DNA of 64,000 nt from an uncultured delta proteobacterium. GTDB taxonomy: Bacteria > Myxococcota_A > Polyangia > Fen-1088. The notes under the pieces were generated by a model. The model ran no database searches, was not told the origin of the DNA, and saw nothing but the letters and a program-made list of their open reading frames with translations. A program made the position numbers and the translations under genes. Within the stretch, counting starts at the first letter, position 1. Every line of letters starts with the position of its first letter. Where the stretch lies: positions 64,001 to 128,000 of the forward strand of contig CAVTRY010000014.1 in the NCBI GenBank assembly GCA_963737265.1, in the 5' to 3' direction. Shown one piece after another: positions 29,221 through 63,216 of this stretch.

Positions 29221-31106
29221 GTGCGCCCAGCATGGGCGTCGTCTTGGGGGTGCAAGTCCCCCCGAAAGGAGACCATCCCAAACGAAGCGAACTGCAACTG
29301 CGAAAGGGCGACCAATCGTGGGGAGGAAGCAGGGAGCGAAACCGCGGGCTGATGAACAAAAACCGGATAAGAGGCGGCGCCGAGCGGGGCGAGTGGGCCC
29401 GTTGCCACAAAGCCTCGATGGTCAAAGCTCAGGCTACGTAGATCCGGCGGTCGTGCGGGGAAGGACGACGTACTTACCTGGGGAGATCTCGCCTTGTGCC
29501 TGAAAGGGCGACGGCGCGGACGCGACGGGGCGAGAAGTCAGCAGAGGTCGTAGTAGCGAAGTCGAAGCCGGGGCGGCGATATCACCGACGCCGGAAGTCT
29601 TTGGCGATGCGAAGGACTGAACGAGAAGGAGAGCGAAACGAACATGCGTCTCGGAAGCAAACGGCCTCAGATGACCAGGCAACTGGAGCTAACGTTTTCA
29701 AATAGGGGTGAAACCCCGACGGGAAAACGAAGCGAGGAAGCGCCGACGGCGACGTGTGAAAACGAGCGCTCGGGAGCGAGCGGCCTGATGGAGAGGGTGT
29801 GCGAACGCCCGAACCTTTTGGCCGCGCTGAAGCGAGTGAGAAGGAACAAGGGCAGTCCCGGCATCGACGGGATGACGGTGGATGAATTGCCGATACACCT
29901 GCGCGAATACTGGCCACGGCTGCGCGAGGAACTGCTCGCGGGGACGTACCAGCCCGCGCTTGTGAAGGAGCAACTCATACCGAAGGCCAGCGGAGGAATG
30001 CGCAAGCTTGGCATTCCGACGGTGGTCGACCGATTCATCCAGCAGGCTGTATTGCAGGTTCTGCAACCGATGTTCGACCCGGACTTCTCAAAGCACAGCC
30101 ACGGTTTCCGGCCTGGGCACCGTGCGCACGACGCCATCGTCGAGGCGCAGGGGTATATCCAGGGCGGACGCAAGTGGGTGGTAGACGTGGACTTGGAGCA
30201 ATTCTTTGACCGCGTGAACCACGACGTGCTGATGGGAAGACTGGCGAAACGCATCGGCGACCGTCGTTTGCTGGGGCTCATCCGGCGTTACCTCGGGGCC
30301 GGCATTATGGCTGGCGGGGTGGCGACGGAGCGGTACGAGGGAACGCCACAAGGCGGCCCCTTGTCACCGCTGCTAGCCAACGTGCTGCTCGACGAAGTGG
30401 ACAAGGAGCTGGAGAAACGCGGGCACGCATTCTGCCGGTACGCTGATGACTGCAACGTATACCTTCGGTCGCGGCGTGCGGGCGAGCGTGTGATGGGGCT
30501 GCTACGGCGGCTCTACGCGGGACTGCGACTTCAAGTCAATGAAACGAAAAGCGCGGTGGGCTTGGCGTGGAACCGGAAAATCCTGGGTTACACATTCTGG
30601 GTAAACCGGGAAGGAACGGTGAAGCGCGCGGTGGCAGACAAAGCCCTTGCCACGATGAAGGACAAAGTCCGGAACATCACGAGGCGGACGGGCGGGCAAA
30701 GCATTGGCCAGGTCTGCAAACGGCTGGGGGAATATCTGCGTGGTTGGAAGGAATACTTCCGGCTCGCGGACACGCCTCGGGTCTTTGGCAACTTGGACAA
30801 ATGGATTCGCCGTCGCCTACGGGCTCTCCACTTGAAACACTGGGGACAACAATCGACCGTCTATCGGGAACTGCGGGCTCGGGGGATGTCCCATGACGCA
30901 GCAAGCGTAGTGGCCGTGAACTGTCGCCGCTGGTGGAAAAACTCGGCTAGTATGATGAACGTGGCATTTCCCATTCGCTACTTTGACCAGTTGGGGGTAC
31001 CCCGGCTGGCCACGTAACCTCAACTTCCCGAACCGCCCGGTGCGGACCCGCACGCCGGGTGGTGTGGCAGGGGTCCTTGACGATCTGTCGAGGCCCCTAT
31101 GCCGAT
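29221..31106 (+). mobile_element. Group II intron, class IIC
   Basis: 5' GTGCGCCCAGCATGGGCG; domain V GAACCGCCCGGTGCGGACCCGCACGCCGGGTGGTG; domain VI ending CCTATGCCGAT; inserted 6 nt after a hairpin. Confidence 0.93.
29644..31017 (+). CDS. ltrA: Group II intron reverse transcriptase/maturase, no endonuclease domain
   Basis: NKGSPGIDG, RKLGIPTVVDR, FFDRVNHD, GTPQGGPLSPLLAN, RYADD, thumb GWKEYF. Start could be 29671. Confidence 0.96.
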   Translation: MRLGSKRPQMTRQLELTFSNRGETPTGKRSEEAPTATCENERSGASGLMERVCERPNLLAALKRVRRNKGSPGIDGMTVDELPIHLREYWPRLREELLAGTYQPALVKEQLIPKASGGMRKLGIPTVVDRFIQQAVLQVLQPMFDPDFSKHSHGFRPGHRAHDAIVEAQGYIQGGRKWVVDVDLEQFFDRVNHDVLMGRLAKRIGDRRLLGLIRRYLGAGIMAGGVATERYEGTPQGGPLSPLLANVLLDEVDKELEKRGHAFCRYADDCNVYLRSRRAGERVMGLLRRLYAGLRLQVNETKSAVGLAWNRKILGYTFWVNREGTVKRAVADKALATMKDKVRNITRRTGGQSIGQVCKRLGEYLRGWKEYFRLADTPRVFGNLDKWIRRRLRALHLKHWGQQSTVYRELRARGMSHDAASVVAVNCRRWWKNSASMMNVAFPIRYFDQLGVPRLAT

Positions 31107-37610: not shown

Positions 37611-38728
37611 GTGTTTCAAGCCCAAGCCTTCACCGTCGAGTGGATCCGCGCCCAAGTGCAGGACGCTGGGAAATTGCGACCCCGGGATCCTTGAAAAGTG
37701 CGTTCACGCCCTGACCTTGCTCGGTCATCTGGCCGAAAGCGGCCTGCCGTTTCTTTTCAAGGGCGGCACCAGCCTACTCCTGCACCTGCCCGAACCACGT
37801 CGCCTCTCGCGCGACATCGACATCGTGTGTGGCCAGCCAACGCACGAGGTCGACACCGTGGTGGTGCGGATCGGTGGGCGGGCTCCATTTCTGCGCTGGG
37901 CGGAAGACCCGCGCGGGGGCGCGCGGCTGCCACGGCGGCGGCACTTCAAATTCTTCTACCGATCCGCGCTGCCGGGGAATCCCGAGACCGAGGTCTTGCT
38001 CGATGTGGTCGAGGAATCGCGCGAAACCCATGAGGTCGTGAGCCTTCCCATCCGCACCAGCTTTCTGCGGCCAGAGCGAGAAGTGGCTCGTGCGCATCCC
38101 GACCATCGAAAGCCTGCTCGGCGACAAGTTGACCGCGTTCGCCCCATCCACGACCGGAATACCACTGCGCAACGCCGATGGGTCGGAGGCCGACGTGCAG
38201 CAGGTTGCCAAGCAGCTTTTCGACGTCGGTGCGCTGTTCGATGCAGCCAGCGACTTCGTCGTAGCGGACAAGGTTCACGCCGCTGTGTGCGCTCTCGACG
38301 CAGAGTACCGAGAATCGCGGCCGACACGCGAGCAAGCCCTCGACGACACATGGCGAGCCTGCCTTGCGATGACGGCGACCAAGCCAGCGATTTGCGCGGG
38401 GTATCCAGATGGGCCGCTGCTACACGCAGGGCTCGACCGCATGAGAGGGCACCTTATCGAACCGAAATATGTGGCGGGCCAGGCCGCTCGTCAGAAATTG
38501 GCCGCGAAAGCGGCGGTGCTGGTGGCCCACATGCGCTCAGGCGCCATGTTCGACTTTGCGGCCAATCGGTACACCGGCAGCTCTACCCAGTTGGATGCCG
38601 TGCGGGCAGCAACTCTCAACGGCACCGATCTCGCTTGGCTCGACAAGATGAAGACGGTTAACCCTGAAGCGTTTCATTACTGGCATCGGGCCGTGCTTGT
38701 ATTCAAGGCAACGAGTTTTGGCAAATAG
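37611..38728 (+). CDS. AbiEii/AbiGii nucleotidyltransferase toxin, frameshifts near 37662 and 38086
   Basis: LEKCVHALTLL, FKGGTSL...RLSRDIDI, LLGDKLTAFAP, KQLFDV. Confidence 0.85.
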
Positions 38729-42368: not shown

Positions 42369-43508
42369 GTGATTTACGCCGACTACAACGCGACCACTCG
42401 CCTCGATCCCGAGGTGCGGGCGGCGATGGACGAGGCGTTGGACGCCGGGTTTGGCAATCCGTCGAGCATTCACGCCGCCGGGCAGGCGGCACGGCGGCTG
42501 GTAGATAGGGCGCGCGCGCAGGTCGCCCGGCTCGTGGGCGCGGCGCCCGAGGAAATTGTGTTCACTGGCGGCGGCACCGAAGCCGACAATCTGGCGGTGC
42601 TCGGCGTGGCCAGCGCGGCGCCGCGCGATCGCCCAGGCATCGTGACCAGCGCCGTCGAGCACCAAGCCGTTTTGGCCCCTTGTGCCTTCCTGCAAAAGCA
42701 GAGCCACGAGGTCACCTTTCTGCCGGTCGATGGCGCCGGCCGAATCGATCTCGCGGCGCTGGAGGCCGCCGCCAAACCCGACGTCGCGCTGGTGTCGGTG
42801 ATGTTCGCCAACAACGACACTGGGACCATCCAGCCGGTAGCCGAGGTAGTGAAGGTAGCGACGGCTTGCGGTACCGCGGTTCACACCGATGCGGTGCAGG
42901 CGGCCGGCAAGCTGCCCATCGACGTGAAGAAGTCGGGGGTGTCGCTGCTCTCGTTCTCGTCGCACAAGATCCACGGACCCAAGGGGGTGGGCGCTCTCTA
43001 CGTCCGGCGCGGGGTGGCTCTGGCACCGCTGGTACACGGCGGCCGGCAGGAGCGCACGCTGCGGCCTGGAACGGAAAACGTGCCCGGCATCGTCGGATTT
43101 GGCAGGGCGTGCGAGCTGGCGCAGGCACGCCTGGAAGCCGACAGCCGCCGCGTGGCCGAGTTACGCGCCCACTTCGAAACGCAGATTCTGGCGCGCGTTC
43201 GCGGCACTCGATTGAACGGCGGCGGCGATCGCTTGCCCAACACGTCTAATATCGCCTTCGCCGGCCTCGATGGCGAGGCCATCACCATCAACCTGGACCT
43301 GGCCGGCATGGCGGTATCCACCGGCGCGGCGTGCAGCTCGGCCGACAAGACGCCCTCGCACGTGCTGGTCGCCATGGGCCAGTCGGCGCTGGAAGCGCGC
43401 TCGTCGGTGCGTTTTTCCTTCGGCCGCGACAACACCGATGAAGAGATCGACCGAGCGGTAACCCTGGTCGTTCAAACCGTAAACATGCTGCGCGGGGCGC
43501 GACGATGA
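42369..43508 (+). CDS. iscS: Cysteine desulfurase (IscS/NifS family)
   Basis: DYNATT, GNPSSIH, GGTEADN, SHKIHGPKGVG, STGAACSS. Confidence 0.93.
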   Translation: MIYADYNATTRLDPEVRAAMDEALDAGFGNPSSIHAAGQAARRLVDRARAQVARLVGAAPEEIVFTGGGTEADNLAVLGVASAAPRDRPGIVTSAVEHQAVLAPCAFLQKQSHEVTFLPVDGAGRIDLAALEAAAKPDVALVSVMFANNDTGTIQPVAEVVKVATACGTAVHTDAVQAAGKLPIDVKKSGVSLLSFSSHKIHGPKGVGALYVRRGVALAPLVHGGRQERTLRPGTENVPGIVGFGRACELAQARLEADSRRVAELRAHFETQILARVRGTRLNGGGDRLPNTSNIAFAGLDGEAITINLDLAGMAVSTGAACSSADKTPSHVLVAMGQSALEARSSVRFSFGRDNTDEEIDRAVTLVVQTVNMLRGARR

Positions 43509-44585
43509 GTGAGCGCATCGTCGTGGCCATGAGCGGCGGCGTGGACAGCAGCGTGGCCGCAGCGCTGCTCCGGCAAGCAGGGCATTCCCTCGTCGGCGTC
43601 ACGCTGAAATTGCAGGAATGCCACGACGCCCACGGCAGCAAATCCTGTTGTGGCGTCGACGGAGTCACGCGCGCACGCGACGTGGCCGCCAGCCTCGGCA
43701 TCCCGCACTACGTGCTCGACTGTGTGAAGGATTTCGAACAGCTCGTGCTGCTGCCGGCGTGGCAAGAATACGCGGGAGGCCGAACGCCCAGCCCGTGCTT
43801 GCTGTGCAACGAACACGTGAAGTTCGGCTTGCTGCTCGACTGGGCCGAGCGCCTCGGCATTCCGCGCGTGGCCACCGGCCACTACGCGCGCCTGGAAAAG
43901 GACGAAGCCGGCCAGACGATGCTGCTGCGCGGCTGCGACACGGGCAAGGATCAATCGTATTTCCTCGCCGGTCTGTCGCTCAGCCAGCTCGGACGCGCGG
44001 CCTTTCCCGTGGGACATCTGCGTAAGCCCGAGGTACGCGCCTTGGCCAAGAGCCACGACCTCCCCACGGCAGAAACGCCCGAAAGCCAGGACGCATGCCT
44101 GGTTCGAGCCGGGCCAGTCGTTCTCCGAGATGTTGCGCAAGCGCTTCGCTGCCCCGGCGAAGACCGGCGAGATTGTCGACGAGGCCGGCCAGGTGGTCGG
44201 CCAGCACGCCGGCATTCACGTGTTCACCATCGGCCAGCGCAAGGGGCTGCCCGCGGGCGCGGCCTCGCGCCGCTGGGTCAAGTCCATCTCGCCCGAAACG
44301 GGCCAGGTCACCGTGACCGGCAACGCGGCCGAGCTCGTGGGCACCGAGTTCGTGGCCAAGAGGGTCAACTGGCTCGACGGCCCGCTGCCTGCTGCGGTCC
44401 TGCCGTGCTCGGTCCAAGTGCGCTATCGCCACGCCAGCGAACCCGCCACCGTCGAGGCCCTGGCCGACGGCAACCTGCGGGTCATCCTGGCCAAGCCCGT
44501 GAAGGCCATCACCCCGGGTCAAGCCGCGGTCTTCTACGACGGCGACCGCACCCTCGGTCGCGGCTGGATCGCTCCCCCTACGTGA
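43505..44585 (+). CDS. mnmA: tRNA 2-thiouridylase, frameshift near 44110
   Basis: AMSGGVDSS, PSPCLLCN, ATGHYAR, KDQSYFL, ESQDAC, then FTIGQRKGL and ITPGQAAVFY. Confidence 0.95.
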
Positions 44586-46874: not shown

Positions 46875-47114
46875 TCAGTGGCTGAGTTTCTTGTCGATGA
46901 GCACCAGCAGATCGCCCACGTTGTTCAACCCGACAACCTCTCCGGTGCCGAATCTGATCTTGAAGGCCTTCTCGATCTGAACGATCAGCCTGACGTTCTT
47001 CAAGGAGTCCCACCCTGGGACATCCTTTGCGGATGTGCTGTCCGCAAGCACGATGCTGTCGTCGTCAAACAAGTCGCGGAAAATCTCCTGCAGGCGATCT
47101 CGATGCACCGACAT
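46875..47114 (-). CDS. Acyl carrier protein (WDSL type)
   Basis: DVPGWDSL phosphopantetheine site, IEKAFKIRF; 79 aa. Confidence 0.93.
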   Translation of the reverse strand: MSVHRDRLQEIFRDLFDDDSIVLADSTSAKDVPGWDSLKNVRLIVQIEKAFKIRFGTGEVVGLNNVGDLLVLIDKKLSH

Positions 47115-47137
47115 CGCTCCTCCCTCGTCAGTCAATT

Positions 47138-49012
47138 TCATTCAATCACTATACAGTGGCCCCGTAGCATACGCTGTTCGCTCAGATCGAATTGCCAGGT
47201 GGTTCCGTCGGCGTCACCTGGGATCTCCTTGAAACCGAGGTCGGCGTAGTGTCCGCTGACAAGCTTGTTCTTGGCGGTGGGTAAGTAGCGACCCACGATC
47301 ACGCGAAGGCCTCGACCTCGACAAAACTCCACCAGGCGCTCCATCTCAAGGACCTCGACGCCGCGCTTGAGAACTCGGCAGCTCATCACCCAGTTGTCGA
47401 TTACGAGAGAGCTCTCCTTGACACGCCCGATGACGACGCTGATGAGCCCATTGGCGCCGAACCGGTCGTCGAGCCGGATCGTCGACGTGTAAGCCTGGTC
47501 GTTGCCGACCAGCGCCTGCACCTCCGCCTCGGTCATGCGGCGGGTGGTCAGGTTGAACTGGTTGGTCTTGTTGATGAGCTGGGTCGCGCGCGCCAGGTTC
47601 CTCTCGGTGACTGGCTCGATCCCAGCGCGCATCTCGAGCCGTTGAAGGAAGTCGTCGTAGCCCCTGGCCCCGGCCTCCAGCTTTTCGCGAGCCTGGTTTT
47701 GCTGGAAGAACTCTCCCCGGATCTGATCTTCTTGCGTCACTGACAGCGTGTCGAAGAGATTTGCGCCGTCCAGCTTCTGCACGAACAGCGAGGGATCCTC
47801 GGGTACGTCAATCACCGTCACGTCCGGCAGACTGGTGCGAACCAGGTGACGCTCTGCGGGGTTGTCGTCGAAGAAGACCATCGCGTCGAGCTCGATATTG
47901 AGTCGCTCGGCAATCGACAGGAGGCTCCGGTCCTTGGGCTCCCAACCCGCCACAAAGCAGGATATGTCGCTCTCTTTCAAGATCATGTCCCGGTGCTCGC
48001 GGAACGGCGCGAGCGCGTTTTCCGGTTCGTTCTTACTGGCCACCGCCAGCAACACGCCGCGCTCCTTGAGCGCCCGCACGTAGGCCTGGAACTGCTGAAA
48101 AGCCTCGCCTTCCGGCTGCCCCACTCCCAGTCGAATGCCGCGCAGGCCATCGTCCCCGATTACGCCGCCCCACAGCGTGTTGTCTAGATCGAGCACCAGG
48201 CACTTCTTGGATTTTCCAAATAGCGCGCCCAGCATCGCGGCCAAACGATCAGCATAGTGCGGCTGGCATTCGAAGCTGACGGCGGTCTTGGTTTCGTTCC
48301 ACAGACGCGCGTCGAACCAGCGACCCTTGCCCCAGATTGCCGAAAGTTGCTCGATGTCGTTAACGTAGACCCGTGGCGGCAGCGCTTGCGCCAGCGCCTC
48401 GTTCAAAGCCCTGATCATGCCGTTGCGGCTACCGGCGGCGACCACGTCTAGCGTGCCATAGGGTCGCTCGACACCGGTCTCGAAGTTGTTCACCACCAGC
48501 GGACAACCGAAACGAACAACGGCGGCCCGAAAGAGGTCGAGCAGGCGCTCGGCCTGGTCGCGCACGAGTCGGGGGGGATCCTCCGCGAACAGCGGAAACG
48601 TCAGGTTGCGGCTCGAGACGTGGAGATGAATCACGTCGGGCGCGAACGCGCACAGCGCAGGAGATTCGGACCAGATCTCCTGTTCATAGAGCCCGAAGTC
48701 GCTTTCGTAGGTTGTGAGCGCCAGCCCGCGCCGGCAGGCAAAGAGCCGAACAAGCGGCGTTAGAAAATGGGTGGTCGCTCCGCCAAGAATCGCCAGACGT
48801 TTTTGGGTCGGGATGCGCGCCGACACGATTTCGGCCGGAATCTTGCCGAGCTGATCGGCGGCATACTCCACCACTTCCAGGGCGTCGCCCGGCTGGACGC
48901 GCAGCATGAGATCGAGTGCCTCCCGGTACCGGTGGGCCTTCATCTGCTGCTTGATTTCTGCCTTCATTTTGCTTGCGCGCCCCGTTCGCGCGGTGGCGGC
49001 AAGTGTAGACAA
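47138..49012 (-). CDS. FkbH-like HAD-IIIC phosphatase / glyceryl transferase
   Basis: VLDLDNTLWGG, ASKN, FFDDNPAE, KTNQFNLTT, DRFG, MSCRVL. Confidence 0.93.
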   Translation of the reverse strand: MSTLAATARTGRASKMKAEIKQQMKAHRYREALDLMLRVQPGDALEVVEYAADQLGKIPAEIVSARIPTQKRLAILGGATTHFLTPLVRLFACRRGLALTTYESDFGLYEQEIWSESPALCAFAPDVIHLHVSSRNLTFPLFAEDPPRLVRDQAERLLDLFRAAVVRFGCPLVVNNFETGVERPYGTLDVVAAGSRNGMIRALNEALAQALPPRVYVNDIEQLSAIWGKGRWFDARLWNETKTAVSFECQPHYADRLAAMLGALFGKSKKCLVLDLDNTLWGGVIGDDGLRGIRLGVGQPEGEAFQQFQAYVRALKERGVLLAVASKNEPENALAPFREHRDMILKESDISCFVAGWEPKDRSLLSIAERLNIELDAMVFFDDNPAERHLVRTSLPDVTVIDVPEDPSLFVQKLDGANLFDTLSVTQEDQIRGEFFQQNQAREKLEAGARGYDDFLQRLEMRAGIEPVTERNLARATQLINKTNQFNLTTRRMTEAEVQALVGNDQAYTSTIRLDDRFGANGLISVVIGRVKESSLVIDNWVMSCRVLKRGVEVLEMERLVEFCRGRGLRVIVGRYLPTAKNKLVSGHYADLGFKEIPGDADGTTWQFDLSEQRMLRGHCIVIE

Positions 49013-49162
49013 CGCCGCTTCGTTTTGTCTATATTCTCAATCATTGTCCTAAAGAAGTCCCTGACGTTGGCGCATTTGTCGTTCAAGAATCAGCGCGAAT
49101 CGAATCGGCCCTGCTAAGGGGTAGCCGATCCATCGGGGACGCGGTAGCAGAGATCGCCATCC

Positions 49163-50587
49163 ATGCTGTTCAATAGCTTCGAGTTCCTGATCTTTCTGAC
49201 CGTCGTCTACGGCCTCTATCTGGCGCTGCCGCACCGGCTTCAGAACTGGATGCTGCTCGCCGCCAGCTACGTGTTCTACGGTTGGTGGGACTGGCGCTTC
49301 CTCAGCATCATCCTTTTTACGACGGTGCTCAACTACCTGGTCAGTCTCAAGGTGTCGCGCAGCACGAGCGACCGATCTAGAAAGCTGTTTCTCAGCATCT
49401 CCGTTATCTGCAACCTCGGGTTGCTGGCCGTCTTCAAGTACTTCAACTTCTTCGTCGGGTCGTTCATCGATCTCGCGCTCAGGCTCGGGTTTCATCTCCG
49501 GTGGGAGCCGCTGCACATCATCCTGCCAGTCGGGATTTCCTTCTTCACCTTTCAATCGATCGGCTATTCTATTGACGTCTACCGGGGTCAGATCAGTCCG
49601 CCCCGCCGCTTCCTCGATTTTGCGCTGTTCGTGGCGTTCTTCCCGCAACTGGTCGCAGGACCGATCCAGCGCGCGACCAATCTGCTGCCCCAGGTAATCG
49701 CGCCTCGTCGGATCGTTCTCGATCAGGTCACCCGCGGCGCGTTCCTGATCCTTTACGGCTTGTTCAAGAAGACGGTCATCGCCGACGGCCTAGCAGGCAG
49801 CGTCAATGACGTCTATAGCTCGGTGGGTGGGAGCTCTGGACTGGATGTCCTGCTGGCCACCTATCTATTTGTGCTCCAGATCTACTGCGATTTTTCCGGC
49901 TACACAGACATCGCGCGCGGTGTCGCCAAGCTGATGGGGTTCAACCTTTCGAAAAACTTCATGACGCCGTTTTACGCCGCCTCACCCTCGGAGTACTGGA
50001 CCCGATGGCACATCAGTCTGTCGAGCTGGGTGAAAGACTACGTTTACCTGCCGCTGGCGCTCCGCTACCTGCGGCGCAGTGACAGCAAGGTCAACGAATA
50101 CAAGCCACATCTGTACGCGATGGTGCTGATGGGTCTGTGGCATGGCGCTGCCTGGACCTATATTCTGTGGGGCGTCTATCACGGATTCATGCTGGTGGCG
50201 TGGGACGCCATCAAGTGGCCCAGGGCAGGGAAAAAGCGGCGGCCATCGATCCCGAAGCCGATCCGGATCGCGTTCTACTTCCAGGTGACCGCGCTCAGCC
50301 TGCTGATTTTCCGGGCGAACTCGGTCCGCCAAATCGGCGAGCTCTTGTGGTCGCTGACGGGCGGGTTGTCGACCAAGCGGCTCAGCATTCCCTTGCCTCC
50401 GACGGCAACCTTGCTGGGTATCCCACTGTTTCTCGTGCTCGATTTTCTGGCCTTCCATCACTCGAGCGATCTCTACTATCGCAAGTGGCCAGATGCGATG
50501 CGCGGCGCCCTGGTGGCCACGCTCTTCATTCTGGTATTAATGGGTTGGTCCAATGCCCCGGCAGAGTTCATCTACTTCCAGTTCTAA
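49163..50587 (+). CDS. MBOAT family O-acyltransferase (AlgI/DltB/PatA-like)
   Basis: MLFNSFEF, LPVGISFFTFQ, FFPQLVAGPI, DFSGYTDIA, WHISLS, GLWHGA, C-terminal FIYFQF. Confidence 0.95.
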   Translation: MLFNSFEFLIFLTVVYGLYLALPHRLQNWMLLAASYVFYGWWDWRFLSIILFTTVLNYLVSLKVSRSTSDRSRKLFLSISVICNLGLLAVFKYFNFFVGSFIDLALRLGFHLRWEPLHIILPVGISFFTFQSIGYSIDVYRGQISPPRRFLDFALFVAFFPQLVAGPIQRATNLLPQVIAPRRIVLDQVTRGAFLILYGLFKKTVIADGLAGSVNDVYSSVGGSSGLDVLLATYLFVLQIYCDFSGYTDIARGVAKLMGFNLSKNFMTPFYAASPSEYWTRWHISLSSWVKDYVYLPLALRYLRRSDSKVNEYKPHLYAMVLMGLWHGAAWTYILWGVYHGFMLVAWDAIKWPRAGKKRRPSIPKPIRIAFYFQVTALSLLIFRANSVRQIGELLWSLTGGLSTKRLSIPLPPTATLLGIPLFLVLDFLAFHHSSDLYYRKWPDAMRGALVATLFILVLMGWSNAPAEFIYFQF

Positions 50588-51704
50588 TCCGACGGCACTC
50601 GCGCCGCCGCAGTCCTTCTCGCTTAGGAAGCTGGGGCGTACCGCGTTCTTCTTCTTGCTCTTCCTGTTGCTGTTCGAGCTCGGGACCTGGGCGGTGTTCA
50701 CCAAGACCCGCCTGGCAGGCGGGTCGCTGCACAGGTTTCTTTGGTACGGAACCTCCTACGAGACGAAGCTGCGCGATTTCGTCAACACACCTAACCAGCC
50801 CGCGAACTCGCTGCTCTATGCGGGTTGGCTGGGCGACGGAAAGCTGCGGTCGCTGCCTGCGGACATCGACGTGACCGTCTACGGGATGTCCTTTTCGGCA
50901 AACCTGAGCGAAGCCATGCGCGAGCTGCGGCCGGAGATAAGGCAACGGGTGGTAGCCGGCCCAGGGGCACCCCTCAACCACACGTACGCCATGTACCAGG
51001 TCGACAAGAAACTGCGCAAGACACGCTTCGCGGTCATCGGCGCCACCTCGGGCGCGGTGCAAGAGATCCTGCTCATGAACCGGGGCAGCTTGTTTTTGGA
51101 TTCAGCGTTCCCGTACTTCTTTCCGCGTTACAAGGTTGATCATGGGAACGTGGTGCTTGCGGCCGATTCCCTCGTCAACTCGGCGGACGAGCTGCGCACG
51201 GCACTCAACAACCCCGAAATCTGGCGGCGCCAGTTGGCGGTGCTTGCGGAGAATGACGATGGCTACCGTCGCTTCTTCTTTGCCGGCGATCCGCTGGATG
51301 CGAGCGTGCTGGGTCGTCTCGTGCGCCGAGGGCTCTCGAAACACCACCTTCAGGACTACTCCAGCAAGGTCCTAGGACCGTCCGGCTTTCGGCGCGACCA
51401 CGAAGCGCCACAGCTTTTTCGGGCCTTGTTGCGGCAAATGGTACGCGAGCTGCGCGCCGAGAACGTGCAGCCCATCGTGGCGCTCTTCTCGCTGCAGGGC
51501 CACGGAAACCACCTCTATTCGCTGGTGGAGGACATCTTGCGCGACGAGGCAGTCCCTTATGTAAATTCCTACGACTTCTGCCATTCGGATGACCGCAGCA
51601 AGTACCAGCCCAATCTCCACTTTGTCCACGAGTGCGACCTCTTGTTCGCGCGGCGCACACTTGAAATCATGGACGCCATCGATAAAGCCAGGTCACCCAT
51701 GTGA
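50553..51704 (+). CDS. Membrane-anchored periplasmic protein, putative SGNH-like (AlgJ/DltD-analogous) acyl acceptor
   Basis: One N-terminal TM helix, VYGMSF candidate Ser block, late NLHF His; directly follows the MBOAT gene. Confidence 0.6.
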   Translation: MPRQSSSTSSSNPTALAPPQSFSLRKLGRTAFFFLLFLLLFELGTWAVFTKTRLAGGSLHRFLWYGTSYETKLRDFVNTPNQPANSLLYAGWLGDGKLRSLPADIDVTVYGMSFSANLSEAMRELRPEIRQRVVAGPGAPLNHTYAMYQVDKKLRKTRFAVIGATSGAVQEILLMNRGSLFLDSAFPYFFPRYKVDHGNVVLAADSLVNSADELRTALNNPEIWRRQLAVLAENDDGYRRFFFAGDPLDASVLGRLVRRGLSKHHLQDYSSKVLGPSGFRRDHEAPQLFRALLRQMVRELRAENVQPIVALFSLQGHGNHLYSLVEDILRDEAVPYVNSYDFCHSDDRSKYQPNLHFVHECDLLFARRTLEIMDAIDKARSPM

Positions 51705-52042
51705 AGTCCGCGCCGCCCAGAACACACTCTACCTTCGATGTTCTCGGTTATTGTCGCTGACGTGACCGTCGGGCAAGTATGGCGCCACATCGAGAGCTAC
51801 CAACCCGACGTCATCGTCGTCTCTATCCGACCATCCCGCCATCCAGAACCGTCTAGACGGGGGAAGGAAACGCGGGCAGACTTGCGATTGTGCATGCCTG
51901 CATCCGCGAATAGTAGACAGAGGCGGGGGTTCTCGAATTCGCACGCCGACGGCGTAGAGGGGCCGATCGATGGCGGTCGGAAGCGTTCCTCCGTTGAGGT
52001 CGAACGCGATTCTCAACGCGACCACACGGCGGAAGCTCGACC

Positions 52043-53721
52043 ATGAATACCATCGAGAGCGCGACCGCCCGGCTGCCCAGACGCCACGTGGAACGGGTTA
52101 TTCTTCCGGCTGTGATCGCGCTGCTGGCGATCCTCGCGTGGCACGCCCGTTGGGATCAGGACGACGCATTCATCTCGTATCGCTACGCCCGGAACTGGAT
52201 CGACGGCTTCGGCGTCGTTTGGAACCCGGGTGAGCCCGTCGAGGGCTACAGCAACTTCCTTTGGGTGGTCGTGCTCGCGACCCTAGGTGCTCTTGGCATC
52301 CCGCTGACGACGGCCAGTTATTTGGCGTCCATCGGGTGCTTCGTCGGCAGCCTGGCGGCGACCTACGCGCTCGCACAAACGGTTCTGAAGAACCACGTAC
52401 TCGCCCTGCTGGTGTGCCTCTTGGTGGGACGAACTACAGCTTTTTCTCGTACGCGACCGGAGGCCTCGAGACCCAGCTCGAGGCCGTTCTCAGCCTCATC
52501 CTGCTCAACGTCGGGGCCCGCGTCACGATTCATCGCAAAGCCTCGATCGGCGTGCTCATGGCGACCAGCGCGGTTTGCGCCTGCGCAGTGATGACGAGGC
52601 CGGACGGCGTCCTGCCCGCAGGCATCCTCGCCGGATGGATCACGCTGGTCCTGTTCGACGCCAAGACGTCGTGGCGCACCTGGTTGCTGCAAATTTTGGC
52701 GCTCGCGGCGCCCGGGGTCGCTATTCTCGCGCGATGGGTGGCCTGGAAGATCCACTTTTACGGCAACTGGCTGCCGAACACATACTACGTGAAGCTTGGA
52801 ACCATCCACCCGCAGACCCTCGAGCGCGGCGCCATCTATGTCGGACTGTTTCTCGCATCCTATTGGCTCTTGCCGGTCCTCCTGGTGCTGGCATTCCAGG
52901 CTTTCAAGAAACTCAAGAAGGGTGCCTTGCCCAGCGTGAGGCTCTCGCCCGCTCTCATGATGGCTCTCCTGGTGTGCGTGACGTTCGCCTATATCGTCGT
53001 GGCCGGTGGGGACATTATGGAGTTTCGCTTCATCGTATCCCTCGTCCCCCCCATCTTCGTACTCGTCGTGAAGTGGCTGTCGGAGCTACTTCCGCGATCC
53101 GTGTTTTTTGTCAGCGGAATTCTCGCCCTTGGAAGCATCTCGCACGGGTTGTTCTTCCCGCGTTACGTGACACCGCCAGGAATCGGGTTCATTCGGGGGT
53201 TGGAATATAACGTCACGCGCGCAACGACGACGAGCTGGTCAGCTATTGGAATAGCCATCGGACGCGGGTTGCCTGTCGATAGCACGGTGAAGATCGCAAT
53301 GACACCGGCTGGCGCGATCCCGTATTACAGCCGACTGCGTTCCGTGGATATGCTTGGGCTGAACGACAAGTGGGTCGCGCGATACGGACGCCCCCGGCAG
53401 CTTTGCGTTGTGTGCACGGGGCACCAGCGACTGGCGGACGTTCACTACCTGCGGTCCGTGGGTACGACGTTGATCGTCGGTCATCCACAAGTCGGAACGC
53501 AAGCGGAGTTCCGGGACGCGGACTTCACACGCATCCTGTCGGCGATGTTTTACGACGAGAAAATGGATTTTCAGGAGATTCCGAGTGGCGCTCGGATGCT
53601 GATGATCCCGCTCGATGCCACGCACGGCGTGTTCGTCGTGTACCTGACGCCGCACCCCGACGTCGAACGAGCTCTCATGGAAGGCCGCTGGTTGGCGCGG
53701 CCGCTTCTTCCGTCCTCGTGA
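52043..53721 (+). CDS. Multi-TM GT-C-like glycosyltransferase, frameshift near 52428
   Basis: DDAFISYRYARN, VEGYSNFLW, GLET, TRPDG, PNTYYVK, DMLGLND. Confidence 0.8.
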
Positions 53722-59792: not shown

Positions 59793-60223
59793 TTTTCACC
59801 CGTCTGCGATTGTAAACCAAATAGGCGAGAAAGTATTGAATCGGGTCGCCGCTAATTTGGCAAAGATGCCCTTTGGCATGTGTGCCGGTGTCTTACCGAC
59901 TGCGCGGGGATCCATCTGCACCGGACCGAAAATGACAGCTGCGTCAGCTGCGCGTCTTGGGGGTAGCGCCCTCGACAAAAGTCGGTATCCTTGGCGCGTT
60001 TCCGAGACGATTTGAGGAAGCTGAACCAACGATGGATGACCACCCGACCGTTCCTGGCAAAGGCATCGTGACCGATTCCCTCACGACCGGGCGCTCGCCC
60101 AAGGCTAGCCGAGCCGAGCCTTCGCGTCTCGCAGGGAAGTCAAGGTGTCTGGGAGGCTAGCGACCGCGATAAAGACTGGTATTCTTACGCGCGTTTCCAA
60201 GAGTCTTTAAGCAAGAAGTGCGA

Positions 60224-63216
60224 ATGATGGCTGCCAATCTGACTGCTCCCGGCGAGAATGTGGTTCCCGCGCCTTCTGGGGTTGTCATCGCGGCTACCTT
60301 CACGGTAAATCCCATCACCGAGTCGCTTTCCCTCTTGCTGCAGGAGGCCAGGCTTGCGCTGCCGACCGAAGTAGTGCCCTACGGGCAGGTGTTTCAAGAG
60401 CTCCTTGACCCATCGGGCCGTTTCGCGCGGAATCGCAACGGGGTCAACGTCGTGTTGATTCGCTTCGAGGATTGGCTGAGCGGCGCGGACGCAATAGCCG
60501 AGTTGACGGCGGAAACACGCAGCGCGGTCGAACGGAATGTCCGCGATCTCGGAGCGGCTATACGAGGAGCGGCTGCGACCACGCCCGTTCCCATCGTTCT
60601 CTCTATGTGCCCGCCGTCACCCATCCTGACCGGCGACGCGGAAGTTCGGCGACTTTTTCGCGCGCTGGAGGATAGGCTGAGAACGGAAGTCGCCACCACG
60701 CCGAGCGTGCACGTCCTGTCCATGGCTTGGGTTGCGAGCTGGGACACGGCGTCCGTACACGATCCGGAAGGAGACCGCATCGGCCACGTGCCATACACGG
60801 CGCGTTTCTTTGCGGGCCTCGGGCTGGCCCTCGCACGTCTCATCCATGCGCTCAAGTGCTCGCCAATGAAGGTGCTGGTGCTCGACTGCGACAACACCCT
60901 TTGGAAAGGCGTGGTAGGCGAGGATGGCGCTTCCGGCATCGAAATCACAGAACCGTACCTAGAGGTGCAAAGATTCGTGCTCGAAGAAGAAGCGCGCCGG
61001 CATGATTCTCTGCCTCGCCAGCAAAAACGTCGAAGCCGACCTGTTGGAGGTGTTTCAGGACCGCAAGGAGATGGTGTTGCGACGGGACGACATCGTTGCC
61101 ATGCGCGCAAACTGGTTGCCCAAATCCGAGAATATCCGCGCCCTCGCGGCGGAGCTGAATCTTGGCCTCGACAGTTTCGTCTTCATCGATGACAACCCCG
61201 TCGAATGCGCTGAGGTCGAGGCAGCATGTCCGGAGGTGCTCGCGTTGCAACTGCCGGTGGGCGACGACGACGACCCTGCCACATTTCTTCGCCACGTCTG
61301 GCCGCTCAACGTTCTTCGTGTGACCGACGAGGATCGACGTCGCAGTGAGATGTATCGTGAAAACCTCGAGCGCGATCGATTTGGCAAGGCTGCGGGGACC
61401 CTCACCAGTTTCCTGGCTGGGCTCGAACTTGAGGATCGGGTTTACGACGCCAACCGCCAGCCAGCTGGCCCGCGCGGCCGAGCTCACCCAACGCACCAAC
61501 CAGTTCAACCTGACCACCCGCCGCCGCAGCGAGGCGGAGATTGAACAGCTCGCCAAGGACGGCTGGCTGTGTCGCGTGGCGGAAGTGCGCGACCGATTCG
61601 GCGACTACGGTTTGGTCGGGTTGGCCATCGTCGCGCCGGAAAAGAATTCCTTGGTGGTGGATACCTTCCTCCTTAGTTGCCGAGTTCTCGGCCGTGGCGT
61701 CGAACATGCGATGCTACGCGAGCTTGGCAAACTGGCAGAGACGGCGGGAAAAAGTCGAGTCGAGATTCTCTTTGTCCCGACCAAGAAGAACCAACCCGCG
61801 CGAAACTTCCTCGACAGCTTGGAAGCGGACGCGCGCGAGGTTTCCGCCGAGGGCCTGCGCGTCGCGCTGTCGACCGCGCGAGCTTGCAAGGTGGCGTATT
61901 GCCCAGGGGACGCGCCCGTCGACTTGCCCACCAACGACAATCCCCAGGCGAGTATTCCGCAGAGTGATGGCCTCCCGAGGTCCAAAATCTGGAATCGCCT
62001 CGCCCGCATCGTTGCCACACCGGAAGACGTCCTGGCCATCTTGGAACGGAATGCTCGCCACGCGAGGGTGACAAGCAAGCCGGTAGTTCCACCTCGCACC
62101 GATACCGAGCGCAGACTTTGCGCTATCTGGAGCGACATTCTCTCTATTTCCGAGGTCGGCGTCGACGATGACTACATCGCGGATCTCGGCGGTACTTCGC
62201 TTCTTGCCGTCGCTATCTTCGCGCGCATCGAGCGAGAGCTAGGCGCACGTTTGCCTCTGGCCACCTTGGTGGAGACACCCACCATCTCCGGAATCGCCGC
62301 GCGCATCGATCGGCCAAGCGACGTTCATTCGCTCGTGCTGTTGCACCGGAGAGGCAGCGAGACTCCGCTCTTCCTCGTGCACGATGCGGATGGCGAGATC
62401 CTGCTCTATCGCAATCTCGCTGAGAGGCTGAGCGATAGACCGGTTTATGGAATCCAGCCGCAAAGCCGGTCGGACGCGCCGATTGCACACACCCGAATCC
62501 GCGACATGGCGGCCCACTACGTCGCCGAAATTCGCAAAGTGCGCCCTCACGGACCCTATTTGCTCGGCGGCCTCTGCGCTGGCGGGATTGTCGCCTACGA
62601 GATGGCGTTGCAACTGGAGGACAAGGGTGAGAGCGCGAAACTCGTCGCGGTCTTCGACGCCGCCGACGTCGAGGCTCAGCGCAAACCCCATATCGAGAGC
62701 AAACGACGACTGCTGCGCATCCAACAGGTCCTCGACGGTCCCTCGGCACGCCAGGCGGCGAGTGCGTTGCTGTCTAAGTTGGTCGGGTATGCGGCGTACC
62801 AATTGAACAGCCGAACCAAGGCTGCGTGGAACAAGATGGCAGTCGCGACCCTGCGATTCTGCTTGGATCGAGGCCTGCCGATCCCGCCCTGGGCGCGCAA
62901 CCTCACGGTCCGGACGGTCTACACGGTCGCTGAGGCCGAGTATCTTCCCACTCGATCGGTGCGCGAAGAGATCCTCCTTTTCCGCGCTACCGAGGGCGAA
63001 GGCTCGGACGAACCCTACACTCGCCTCTACGTCGATCCGCTGCTTGGCTGGGACAAGCGCAGCACGCAAGGAACGCGCGCTTTCGACGTGCCCGGTGGCC
63101 ACGGCAGCATGTTGCAAGAACCTCATGTGGCAGCCACGGCCGAGATCTTGCGGTCCCACCTTGCATCCACGAGACTAAAGCCCATCTCAGGGGCCGCCGG
63201 AGGCGTGGCTGCGTGA
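60224..63216 (+). CDS. FkbH-ACP-thioesterase fusion, frameshifts near 60985 and 61433
   Basis: VLDCDNTLWKG, ASKN, FIDDNPVEC, RTNQFNLTT, LSCRVLGRG; ACP LGGTSLL; TE GPYLLGGLCAGG...FD...GGHGSML. Confidence 0.88.

Follow-up and report, generated by a model that had tools for sequence, protein, structure and literature searches.

An FkbH-carrier-cysteine thioesterase gene coupled to a membrane glycosyltransferase in an uncultured member of the Polyangia, with a proposed role in glyceroyl transfer

We analyzed a 64,000-nucleotide stretch of DNA, hereafter the window, from an uncultured delta proteobacterium of the Polyangia (GenBank assembly GCA_963737265.1, contig CAVTRY010000014.1, positions 64,001 to 128,000 of the forward strand). 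Our subject is a gene near its right-hand end, at positions 60218-63216 of the plus strand, which encodes one protein with an FkbH part, an acyl carrier protein (ACP) and a thioesterase (TE), spread over three overlapping frames of that strand. Frame 1 runs from 60218 or 60224 to about 60985, with GTG 60218, ATG 60224 and ATG 60227 as candidate starts; frame 2 covers about 60987-61430 and frame 3 about 61432-63216. A single FkbH-ACP-TE product of about 1,000 amino acids exists only on reading through both frameshifts. An earlier interpretation, made from the letters alone and called here the sequence-only reading, had proposed such a fusion; the codons and motifs that it named (DCDNT, SCRVL, the ACP Ser at 62197, the TE Cys at 62575, the Asp and the His of GGH) are all found where the DNA is read. 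The domains of the protein, together with the family 2 glycosyltransferase (GT2) gene that follows it, are as follows.

60224..60985, plus strand: N-terminal part of FkbH, frame 1, with the D-C-D-N-T HAD motif at 60884-60898; TIGR01686 positions 3-41; Viterbi segment 60203-60985
60987..61430, plus strand: middle part of FkbH, frame 2, with LCLASKN and the DD motif; TIGR01686 positions 49-187, 115.7 bits
61432..61830, plus strand: C-terminal transferase part of FkbH, frame 3, with QRTNQFN and the catalytic Cys (TGC 61678) in S-C-R-V-L; TIGR01686 positions 194-317, 104.8 bits
62110..62307, plus strand: carrier protein (ACP or peptidyl carrier protein, PCP), with the phosphopantetheine Ser (TCG 62197) in G-G-T-S-L; PF00550, 51.5 bits
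62365..63150, plus strand: type I TE, with Cys (TGC 62575) in G-L-C-A-G, Asp (GAC 62656) and His (CAC 63100) in G-G-H; PF00975, 89.9 bits
63213..64000, on to 64241 past the window end, plus strand: membrane GT2 of 342 amino acids, with a GTG start in the GTGA overlap, D-G-D, Q-W-W-R-R and C-terminal helices; PF00535, 54.9 bits

Profile matches were read against cut-offs of 146.65 bits for TIGR01686, 20.8 for PF00550, 26.4 for PF00975 and 23.3 for PF00535. The three FkbH pieces in the window scored 38, 115.7 and 104.8 bits, each below the TIGR01686 cut-off, with a rough sum of 258. The FkbH part has both the HAD DxDxT motif and the C-terminal catalytic Cys, and residues D219, D221 and T223 are invariant in our alignment (A1); its sole match in a sequence search of the PDB was the uncharacterized protein BF1531 (3slr). 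The carrier exceeded its cut-off and has the GGxS Ser. The TE likewise exceeded its own and has an alpha/beta-hydrolase fold, and its top Foldseek matches were all TEs of nonribosomal peptide synthetases (NRPS), polyketide synthases (PKS) or fatty acid synthases. This TE departs from the classic Ser-His-Asp triad in that its nucleophile is Cys (TGC 62575), with Asp and His present, and it is therefore a Cys variant. A Pfam search found neither a condensation (C) nor an adenylation (A) domain in the protein. As the sequence-only reading had noted, the gene is translationally coupled to the GT2 gene, whose GTG start at 63213 shares bases with the TGA stop at 63214-63216 (GTGA).

An intact paralog lies on another contig of the same genome (C11:1388170-1391502). 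It is a 1,000-amino-acid gene call with 64% identity over the frame-3 part, the same GGLCAGG motif and a TIGR01686 score of 290.3 bits against the cut-off of 146.65. A search with this paralog found 2,977 proteins at E≤0.001 among 8,000 candidates scored. The best 120 relatives are about 970 to 1,255 amino acids long, all carry PF00550 and PF00975, and their names are only "FkbH-like protein" or "HAD-IIIC family phosphatase." Carrier and TE stand in one protein of about 1,000 amino acids in all of these, and the fusion is thus real in homologues. The gene belongs to a widespread family, catalogued but uncharacterized.

The codon at the TE nucleophile, TGC, might have been a slip from a Ser codon. 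When the best 120 relatives were aligned with frame 3 of the window, the FkbH Cys, the ACP Ser and the TE Cys, Asp and His were each invariant (121/121). A scan of species-representative genomes yielded 577 confirmed stretches encoding relatives; 80 of these loci were kept, 44 of them with a full tri-domain gene. The nucleophile is Cys in 42 of the 44 and Ser in two (L032 and L046, both cyanobacterial). A search with the TE only, over 1.84 billion representatives, gave 379 matches at E≤1e-30, and among the best 150 of these the nucleophile is Cys in 144, Ser in 4 and Gly in 1, the site being not covered in 1. The Cys is thus a hallmark of the family and not a slip.

Domain content was sampled for 39 proteins of this Cys-TE clade. 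The architectures were A-PCP-TE in 13, NRPS modules in 11, PCP-TE without a recognized N-terminal loader domain in 5, and A-KR-PCP-TE, C-PCP-TE, PKS and a GT2 fused after the TE in 2 each; a PCP-TE-AT protein and a symporter fusion were each sampled once. Some FkbH-ACP-TE proteins carry a C-terminal hexapeptide-repeat acyltransferase (P0055, P0060, P0088 and L010:3-3236).

What type of Cys TE is this? The sequence-only reading had likened it to the TEs of ObiF and SulM, which off-load their products non-hydrolytically to form a beta-lactone and a beta-lactam, respectively, from NRPS termination modules, and in which, according to excerpts of PMC6668435 and PMC11298585, the catalytic Asp is relocated to position II. 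In the window TE the Asp lies 27 residues past the Cys and is invariant; because the nucleophile helix is succeeded by a strand and then at once by this Asp, it occupies the canonical position I. The motif at the nucleophile is L-C-A (M-C-A in most relatives), and the Gln-Cys-Asn of SulM is absent. Our structural model of the TE (pLDDT 88), which has a helical lid of about 60 residues after the Asp strand, placed AB3403 (4zxh) first by Foldseek at about 26% identity, the PCP-TE of EntF second and the PCP-TE of SulM 39th. AB3403 was also the nearest solved TE by sequence (E 2.1e-32), its GGWCFGG aligning with GGLCAGG. The analogy with ObiF and SulM was thus misplaced as to type: it supports the view that Cys TEs are capable of non-hydrolytic chemistry, but the window TE is not of their kind.

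The window TE belongs to an AB3403-like Cys-TE clade, as evidenced by the Cys nucleophile, the Asp at position I and the closest match in both sequence and fold. AB3403 (ABBFA_003403; 4zxh and 4zxi) is a termination-module TE of Acinetobacter baumannii. Excerpts of PMC11298585 describe it as the sole other structurally characterized TE with a nucleophilic Cys, its Asp kept at position I, and as solved in structure but uncharacterized in chemistry. It sits in a C-A-PCP-TE module of an NRPS whose product is unknown, where the loader is an adenylation domain instead of FkbH. The TE of Pks13 is detectably homologous to the window TE (E 1e-9 to 1e-10; NF040607 match), and differs in its Ser nucleophile, its very long-chain cargo and its PKS context. 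The Pks13 TE is an acyltransferase onto a sugar, moving mycolate to trehalose.

The product of the coupled gene fits the GT2 class by its profile score (54.9 against 23.3 bits), by the invariant D99 and D101 and by a synthase-like fold. Its model (pLDDT 92) matched 7sp7, 8smm, 4p00 and 6yv7 best in Foldseek, at TM scores of 0.59 to 0.68; these are hyaluronan and cellulose synthases (HAS, BcsA) and PcManGT. A sequence search of the PDB with the GT2 gave only a weak match to GmaR. Within the stretch F-C-Q-W-W-R-R-S-V-R, W217, R220 and R223 show no variation and Q216 hardly any; the stretch resembles, without being identical to, QxxRW, the motif of processive synthases. A predicted complex of ACP-TE with the GT2 scored 0.00 against a mark of 0.32, which is evidence neither way.

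The link to the GT2 is conserved beyond the window, as the survey of neighboring genes over the 44 loci revealed. Clustering of neighbors gave three recurrent GT2 subfamilies, here called cl2, cl3 and cl6, present in 21, 18 and 11 loci, respectively. At least one of the three lies within 8 kb in 30 of the 44 loci, and a GT2 is directly adjacent on the same strand in at least 19, often with the 4-base overlap seen in the window. The two loci with a Ser nucleophile, L032 and L046, have none of the three in their flanks. The window GT2 is of the cl3 type, for which tblastn found orthologues with 40 to 64% identity in 19 of the 80 loci; in three Myxococcota-labelled loci (L024, L041 and L048) a cl3 GT2 follows the tri-domain gene as it does here. 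Fusions of a TE to a GT2 back this association: P0213 and P0161 are A-PCP-TE-GT2 and PCP-TE-GT2 proteins, the second having Gly in place of the nucleophile, and their GT2 is of the cl2 type, 57 to 61% identical to the GT2 beside the tri-domain gene in L011. Other recurring neighbors are GT4 (12/44), ABC-2 (9/44), Wzt (8/44) and PPTase (6/44) genes and sugar-nucleotide enzymes. In the two closest Myxococcota-labelled loci, a Cys A-PCP-TE gene (motif LLGLCFGG) lies just past the cl3 GT2 on the opposite strand (L024:8183-10759 and L041:12083-14716, both minus).

The order of the domains, the conserved catalytic residues, the linkage to GT2 genes and the existence of TE-GT2 fusions are observed. 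On that footing we propose a self-contained, thiotemplated enzyme of glyceroyl transfer, which would move glycerate onto a membrane glycoconjugate made by the GT2; we judge the chances of this to be about even. In FkbH/OzmB chemistry, 1,3-bisphosphoglycerate is the source of the D-glycerate that is loaded onto a carrier protein. By homology, the FkbH part would hold a three-carbon glycolytic unit, presumably D-1,3-bisphosphoglycerate, on its own Cys, the HAD half would dephosphorylate it, and the resulting glycerate would pass to the fused carrier. The carrier arm would then bring the glycerate to the TE Cys to give a thioester acyl-enzyme. From there, as the genomic context suggests, the TE would transfer the glycerate instead of hydrolyzing it, handing it to an acceptor other than water: a membrane-proximal sugar or glycolipid made by the coupled GT2, which would be acylated on a hydroxyl or an amino group. 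The GT2 itself has a minimal fold like that of cellulose synthases. The two-gene operon could in this way decorate or prime the polysaccharide of the surrounding locus.

Several points weigh against this proposal. The predicted cargo rests on homology to FkbH/OzmB and on the chemistry of those proteins. The Cys by itself is no proof of transfer, since AB3403, the closest Cys TE of solved structure, is uncharacterized too. The literature searched (without subscription journals and supplements) held no biochemical evidence for any tri-domain family member. The GT2 found fused to TEs is of subfamily cl2, whereas the window GT2 is cl3. Finally, 14 of the 44 loci have none of the three GT2 subfamilies in their flanks; six of these have fewer than 400 bases downstream.

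The same architecture could serve other chemistries. The GT2 might add a sugar to glycerate while it is still held on the ACP or the TE Cys, the TE then releasing or passing on a glycosyl-glycerate for which glycerate is the aglycone primer. The tight coupling to the GT2 and the TE-GT2 fusions fit such on-carrier glycosylation equally well, and the gene can be flanked by a cassette with as many as three GT2 subfamilies, as in L012. We nevertheless regard it as unlikely: the GT2 is membrane embedded and synthase like, its known relatives use lipid-linked or growing glycan acceptors, our literature searches found no GT2 that acts on a carrier-protein thioester, and the gene pair lies inside a larger polysaccharide locus with GT4, MBOAT and epimerase genes. 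A TE that simply hydrolyzes, either freeing D-glycerate or clearing a mis-loaded carrier, is considerably less probable again. Hydrolysis is the default chemistry of TEs and the protein is a PF00975 member, but it would seem wasteful to spend an energy-rich acyl phosphate and three domains on the production of free glycerate, and the strict conservation of the Cys and of the GT2 partner would be left unexplained.

Of still lower probability, to our minds, is an iterative TE of the EntF type that oligomerizes or lactonizes glycerate into an oligo-glycerate ester for use by the GT2. The free hydroxyls of glycerate could in principle attack the acyl-enzyme, and the EntF PCP-TE is the second-best structural match; that similarity is, however, generic to NRPS TEs, and nothing in the locus points to an oligo-glycerate. 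The chances of a ring-forming TE that would make a strained lactone from glycerate are next to negligible. It would share its Cys nucleophile with ObiF and SulM as described in the excerpts of PMC6668435 and PMC11298585, but those sources place the Asp of both at position II, against an invariant position I here, and the L-C-A motif and the 39th rank of the SulM PCP-TE also speak against it. The reading that we carry forward has the glycerate transferred, at the GT2, onto an acceptor that is a sugar or is lipid linked.

Is the window copy of the gene functional? The two breaks lie at the following sites, where frame switches were called with a home-made codon-usage Viterbi decoder and compared with the intact paralog by blastn.

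60983..60992, plus strand: frameshift site 1, one extra base (about 60986) in GAAGAAGAAG relative to the intact paralog, a single-base gap in blastn; Viterbi switch at 60985
61425..61437, plus strand: frameshift site 2, one extra base (about 61431) in GAACTTGAGG relative to the paralog in blastn; Viterbi switch at 61454

Both are +1 insertions, 445 bases apart, and as a pair they do not restore the reading frame. By our reading, dropping one base at each site would give a protein equal in length to the paralog across both junctions. Programmed frameshifting was considered and rejected, since not one of the 120 relatives listed depends on it, the +1 shift occurs at two separate places, and no recognizable slippery motif was seen.

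Read data were of limited help here. Contigs assembled from three low-depth runs of one soil study (word depth about 2 to 5) stop at 60980, restart at 61086 and cover nothing between 61304 and 61640, and no read contig spans either frameshift site. No RNA data set was listed among those that contain the stretch. The TGC codon fared better, in that short-read contigs of the three runs reproduce 62463-62688 without differences; this support is not independent, because the study may be the source sample of the assembly. An exact 40-base search of metagenome contigs with sequence just upstream of site 1 found no match. Among 40 relatives searched for a closer orthologue none exceeded 64% identity, and the shift sites therefore have no syntenic intact orthologue for comparison.

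The reliability of the assembly itself was also gauged. The decoder flagged 275 same-strand frame switches away from stops across the genome (6.55 Mb), a figure that is an upper bound and not an error count because it includes true gene boundaries (ppk/ppx, rhomboid). In 4 of 20 randomly drawn candidates a split within a single family of Pfam was confirmed (RepSA, serA, metG and leuA), and several others were ordinary gene boundaries. The confirmed splits of metG, serA, leuA and RepSA are at C7:195751-196829, C7 ~364865, C7 ~370585 and C18:1-661 (L098, L095, L106 and L094); contig C7 is the densest in candidate switches, with 7.8 per 100 kb. The genome's only strong match to metG, the methionyl-tRNA synthetase gene, is the frame-split copy. 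Within the window itself, mnmA (tRNA 2-thiouridylase; 43496-44570, plus strand) is split at about 44092 between its HUP domain and its M and C domains, an indication that assembly indels occur in this stretch as well. Since essential single-copy genes are broken in this assembly, it is unfit for calling a pseudogene. Tri-domain genes are also split or interrupted by an in-frame stop in some other metagenome-assembled genomes (L028, L033, L043 and L109), so that broken copies of this long gene are common in such assemblies. A further switch at about 52429 links segments of 134 and 422 amino acids, neither with a Pfam match, at 52028-53694 (plus strand); this may be another frameshifted gene of the polysaccharide locus.

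We conclude that the two frameshifts are probably assembly indels rather than real lesions. The competing explanation, that both insertions are in the organism's DNA and the window copy is a recent pseudogene whose job, if any, is done by the C11 paralog, strikes us as rather doubtful but carries real weight. It draws on the closeness of the two indels within one gene, on an intact paralog that could make the window copy dispensable, and on the lack of read coverage at either site. The family is also patchy in the genus, with matches in 4 of 12 other same-genus genomes (58 to 64% identity) and a closer orthologue in none, and the transposase genes beside the paralog suggest turnover. Against a pseudogene stand the frameshifts elsewhere in the assembly, in leuA, serA, mnmA and the one strong match to metG; they make its indels untrustworthy. 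In addition, frames 2 and 3 are open through their coding parts, the five catalytic residues are intact, and so is the coupled GT2 gene.

Two further loci of the same genome bear on these genes. In the paralog locus (L007; G000 C11:1378001-1398000), a Bac_transf priming transferase and a sigma-54 activator precede the paralog, and ParB-HTH, Mu-transposase and rve integrase genes follow it near the contig end; the locus may be mobile or recently rearranged. Contig C16 (L116; G000 C16:352001-372000, minus strand) carries an NRPS-like line, with genes for a PCP-aminotransferase, a C-A-PCP protein and a docking-domain C-PCP-TE protein with a Cys nucleophile; next come a GT2 of the cl2 type and a PMT_2 (GT-C) gene. 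The TE of this C-PCP-TE protein is 40% identical to the window TE, and the locus looks like a second unit of carrier, Cys TE and GT2 in the same genome.

In the window, the tri-domain gene and the GT2 gene are a bicistronic pair within a polysaccharide locus, which also contains a GT2, an epimerase, another FkbH gene (FkbH1), an MBOAT gene, two GT4 genes and a beta-helix gene. Upstream of the tri-domain gene lie 530 non-coding bases and then the divergent beta-helix gene; downstream of the GT2 is a convergent response regulator gene. The sequence-only reading had described the tri-domain enzyme as a second route parallel to an MBOAT route in this locus, and the parts of such a Dlt-like glycerate route (FkbH1, an ACP and the MBOAT) are indeed present at 46881-51689.

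46881-47138, minus strand: small PP-binding protein just downstream of FkbH1; 22.5 bits against the cut-off of 20.8
47141-49024, minus strand: FkbH1, assigned to the Dlt-like glycerate route
49163-50584, plus strand: MBOAT, assigned to the Dlt-like glycerate route
50583-51689: 369-amino-acid protein with no Pfam match, assigned to the Dlt-like glycerate route

Elsewhere in the window are an open reading frame (ORF) for a group II intron reverse transcriptase/maturase (29644-31017, plus strand) and an ORF for an AbiEii-type nucleotidyltransferase toxin (37717-38661, plus strand).

How does the tri-domain system compare with known ones? Dlt-type systems, and the FkbH1/ACP/MBOAT counterpart in the window, share with the route proposed for it a carrier-loaded small acid that decorates a cell-surface polymer. 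The Dlt-type route passes the acyl group across the membrane through MBOAT, whereas the tri-domain route would use a cytoplasmic Cys TE and a GT2. Glyceryl-ACP loaders of the FkbH/OzmB type (TIGR01686), from the methoxymalonyl-ACP, tetronate and oxazolomycin pathways, have the same invariant HAD motifs (DxDxT, SKN and DD) and the C-terminal catalytic Cys. The known loaders feed PKS or NRPS lines through a discrete or module-embedded ACP. Here, in contrast, the loader shares one polypeptide with an ACP of its own and a Cys TE, lacks a chain-extending enzyme and stands in glycan loci.

Glycerate is found as an acyl substituent of surface sugars in bacteria, as Pse5Am7Gra in Tannerella forsythia (excerpts of PMC5378307) and as di-O-methylglyceroyl-Pse in Campylobacter jejuni (excerpts of PMC3068675). 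The former source calls the genetic basis of the N-glyceroyl sugar "a major challenge," and excerpts of PMC7099621 place cj1302, a gene with an FkbH domain, in the flagellar glycosylation locus of C. jejuni. These sugars share with our proposal a glyceroyl group on a surface sugar. In the literature searched we found no description of an FkbH-ACP-CysTE family or of its partnership with a GT2, and FkbH appeared only with PKS and NRPS pathways, apart from the one mention in the C. jejuni flagellar locus.

The window gene itself is in one respect ordinary, in that it adds a further member to a catalogued family, with breaks that probably reflect noise in the assembly. The interest sits in a hypothesis at the level of the family, which we put forward tentatively and at somewhat less than even chances, that FkbH-ACP-CysTE proteins are the missing cytoplasmic glyceroyl-transferases of surface glycans. 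They perhaps form part of a broader, so far undescribed scheme that pairs a loader, a carrier and an AB3403-type Cys TE with a minimal synthase-like GT2, either as a separate partner or as a fusion, in the Myxococcota, Planctomycetota, Cyanobacteria, Proteobacteria and Acidobacteriota. The loader in this scheme may be FkbH or an adenylation domain, and the outcome may be a thiotemplated acylation or priming of glycoconjugates that dispenses with the chain building of NRPS and PKS lines. The tri-domain family offers a concrete, widely distributed candidate for the attachment of glycerate to surface sugars and, if the hypothesis is true, this would be the first function for AB3403-type Cys thioesterases.

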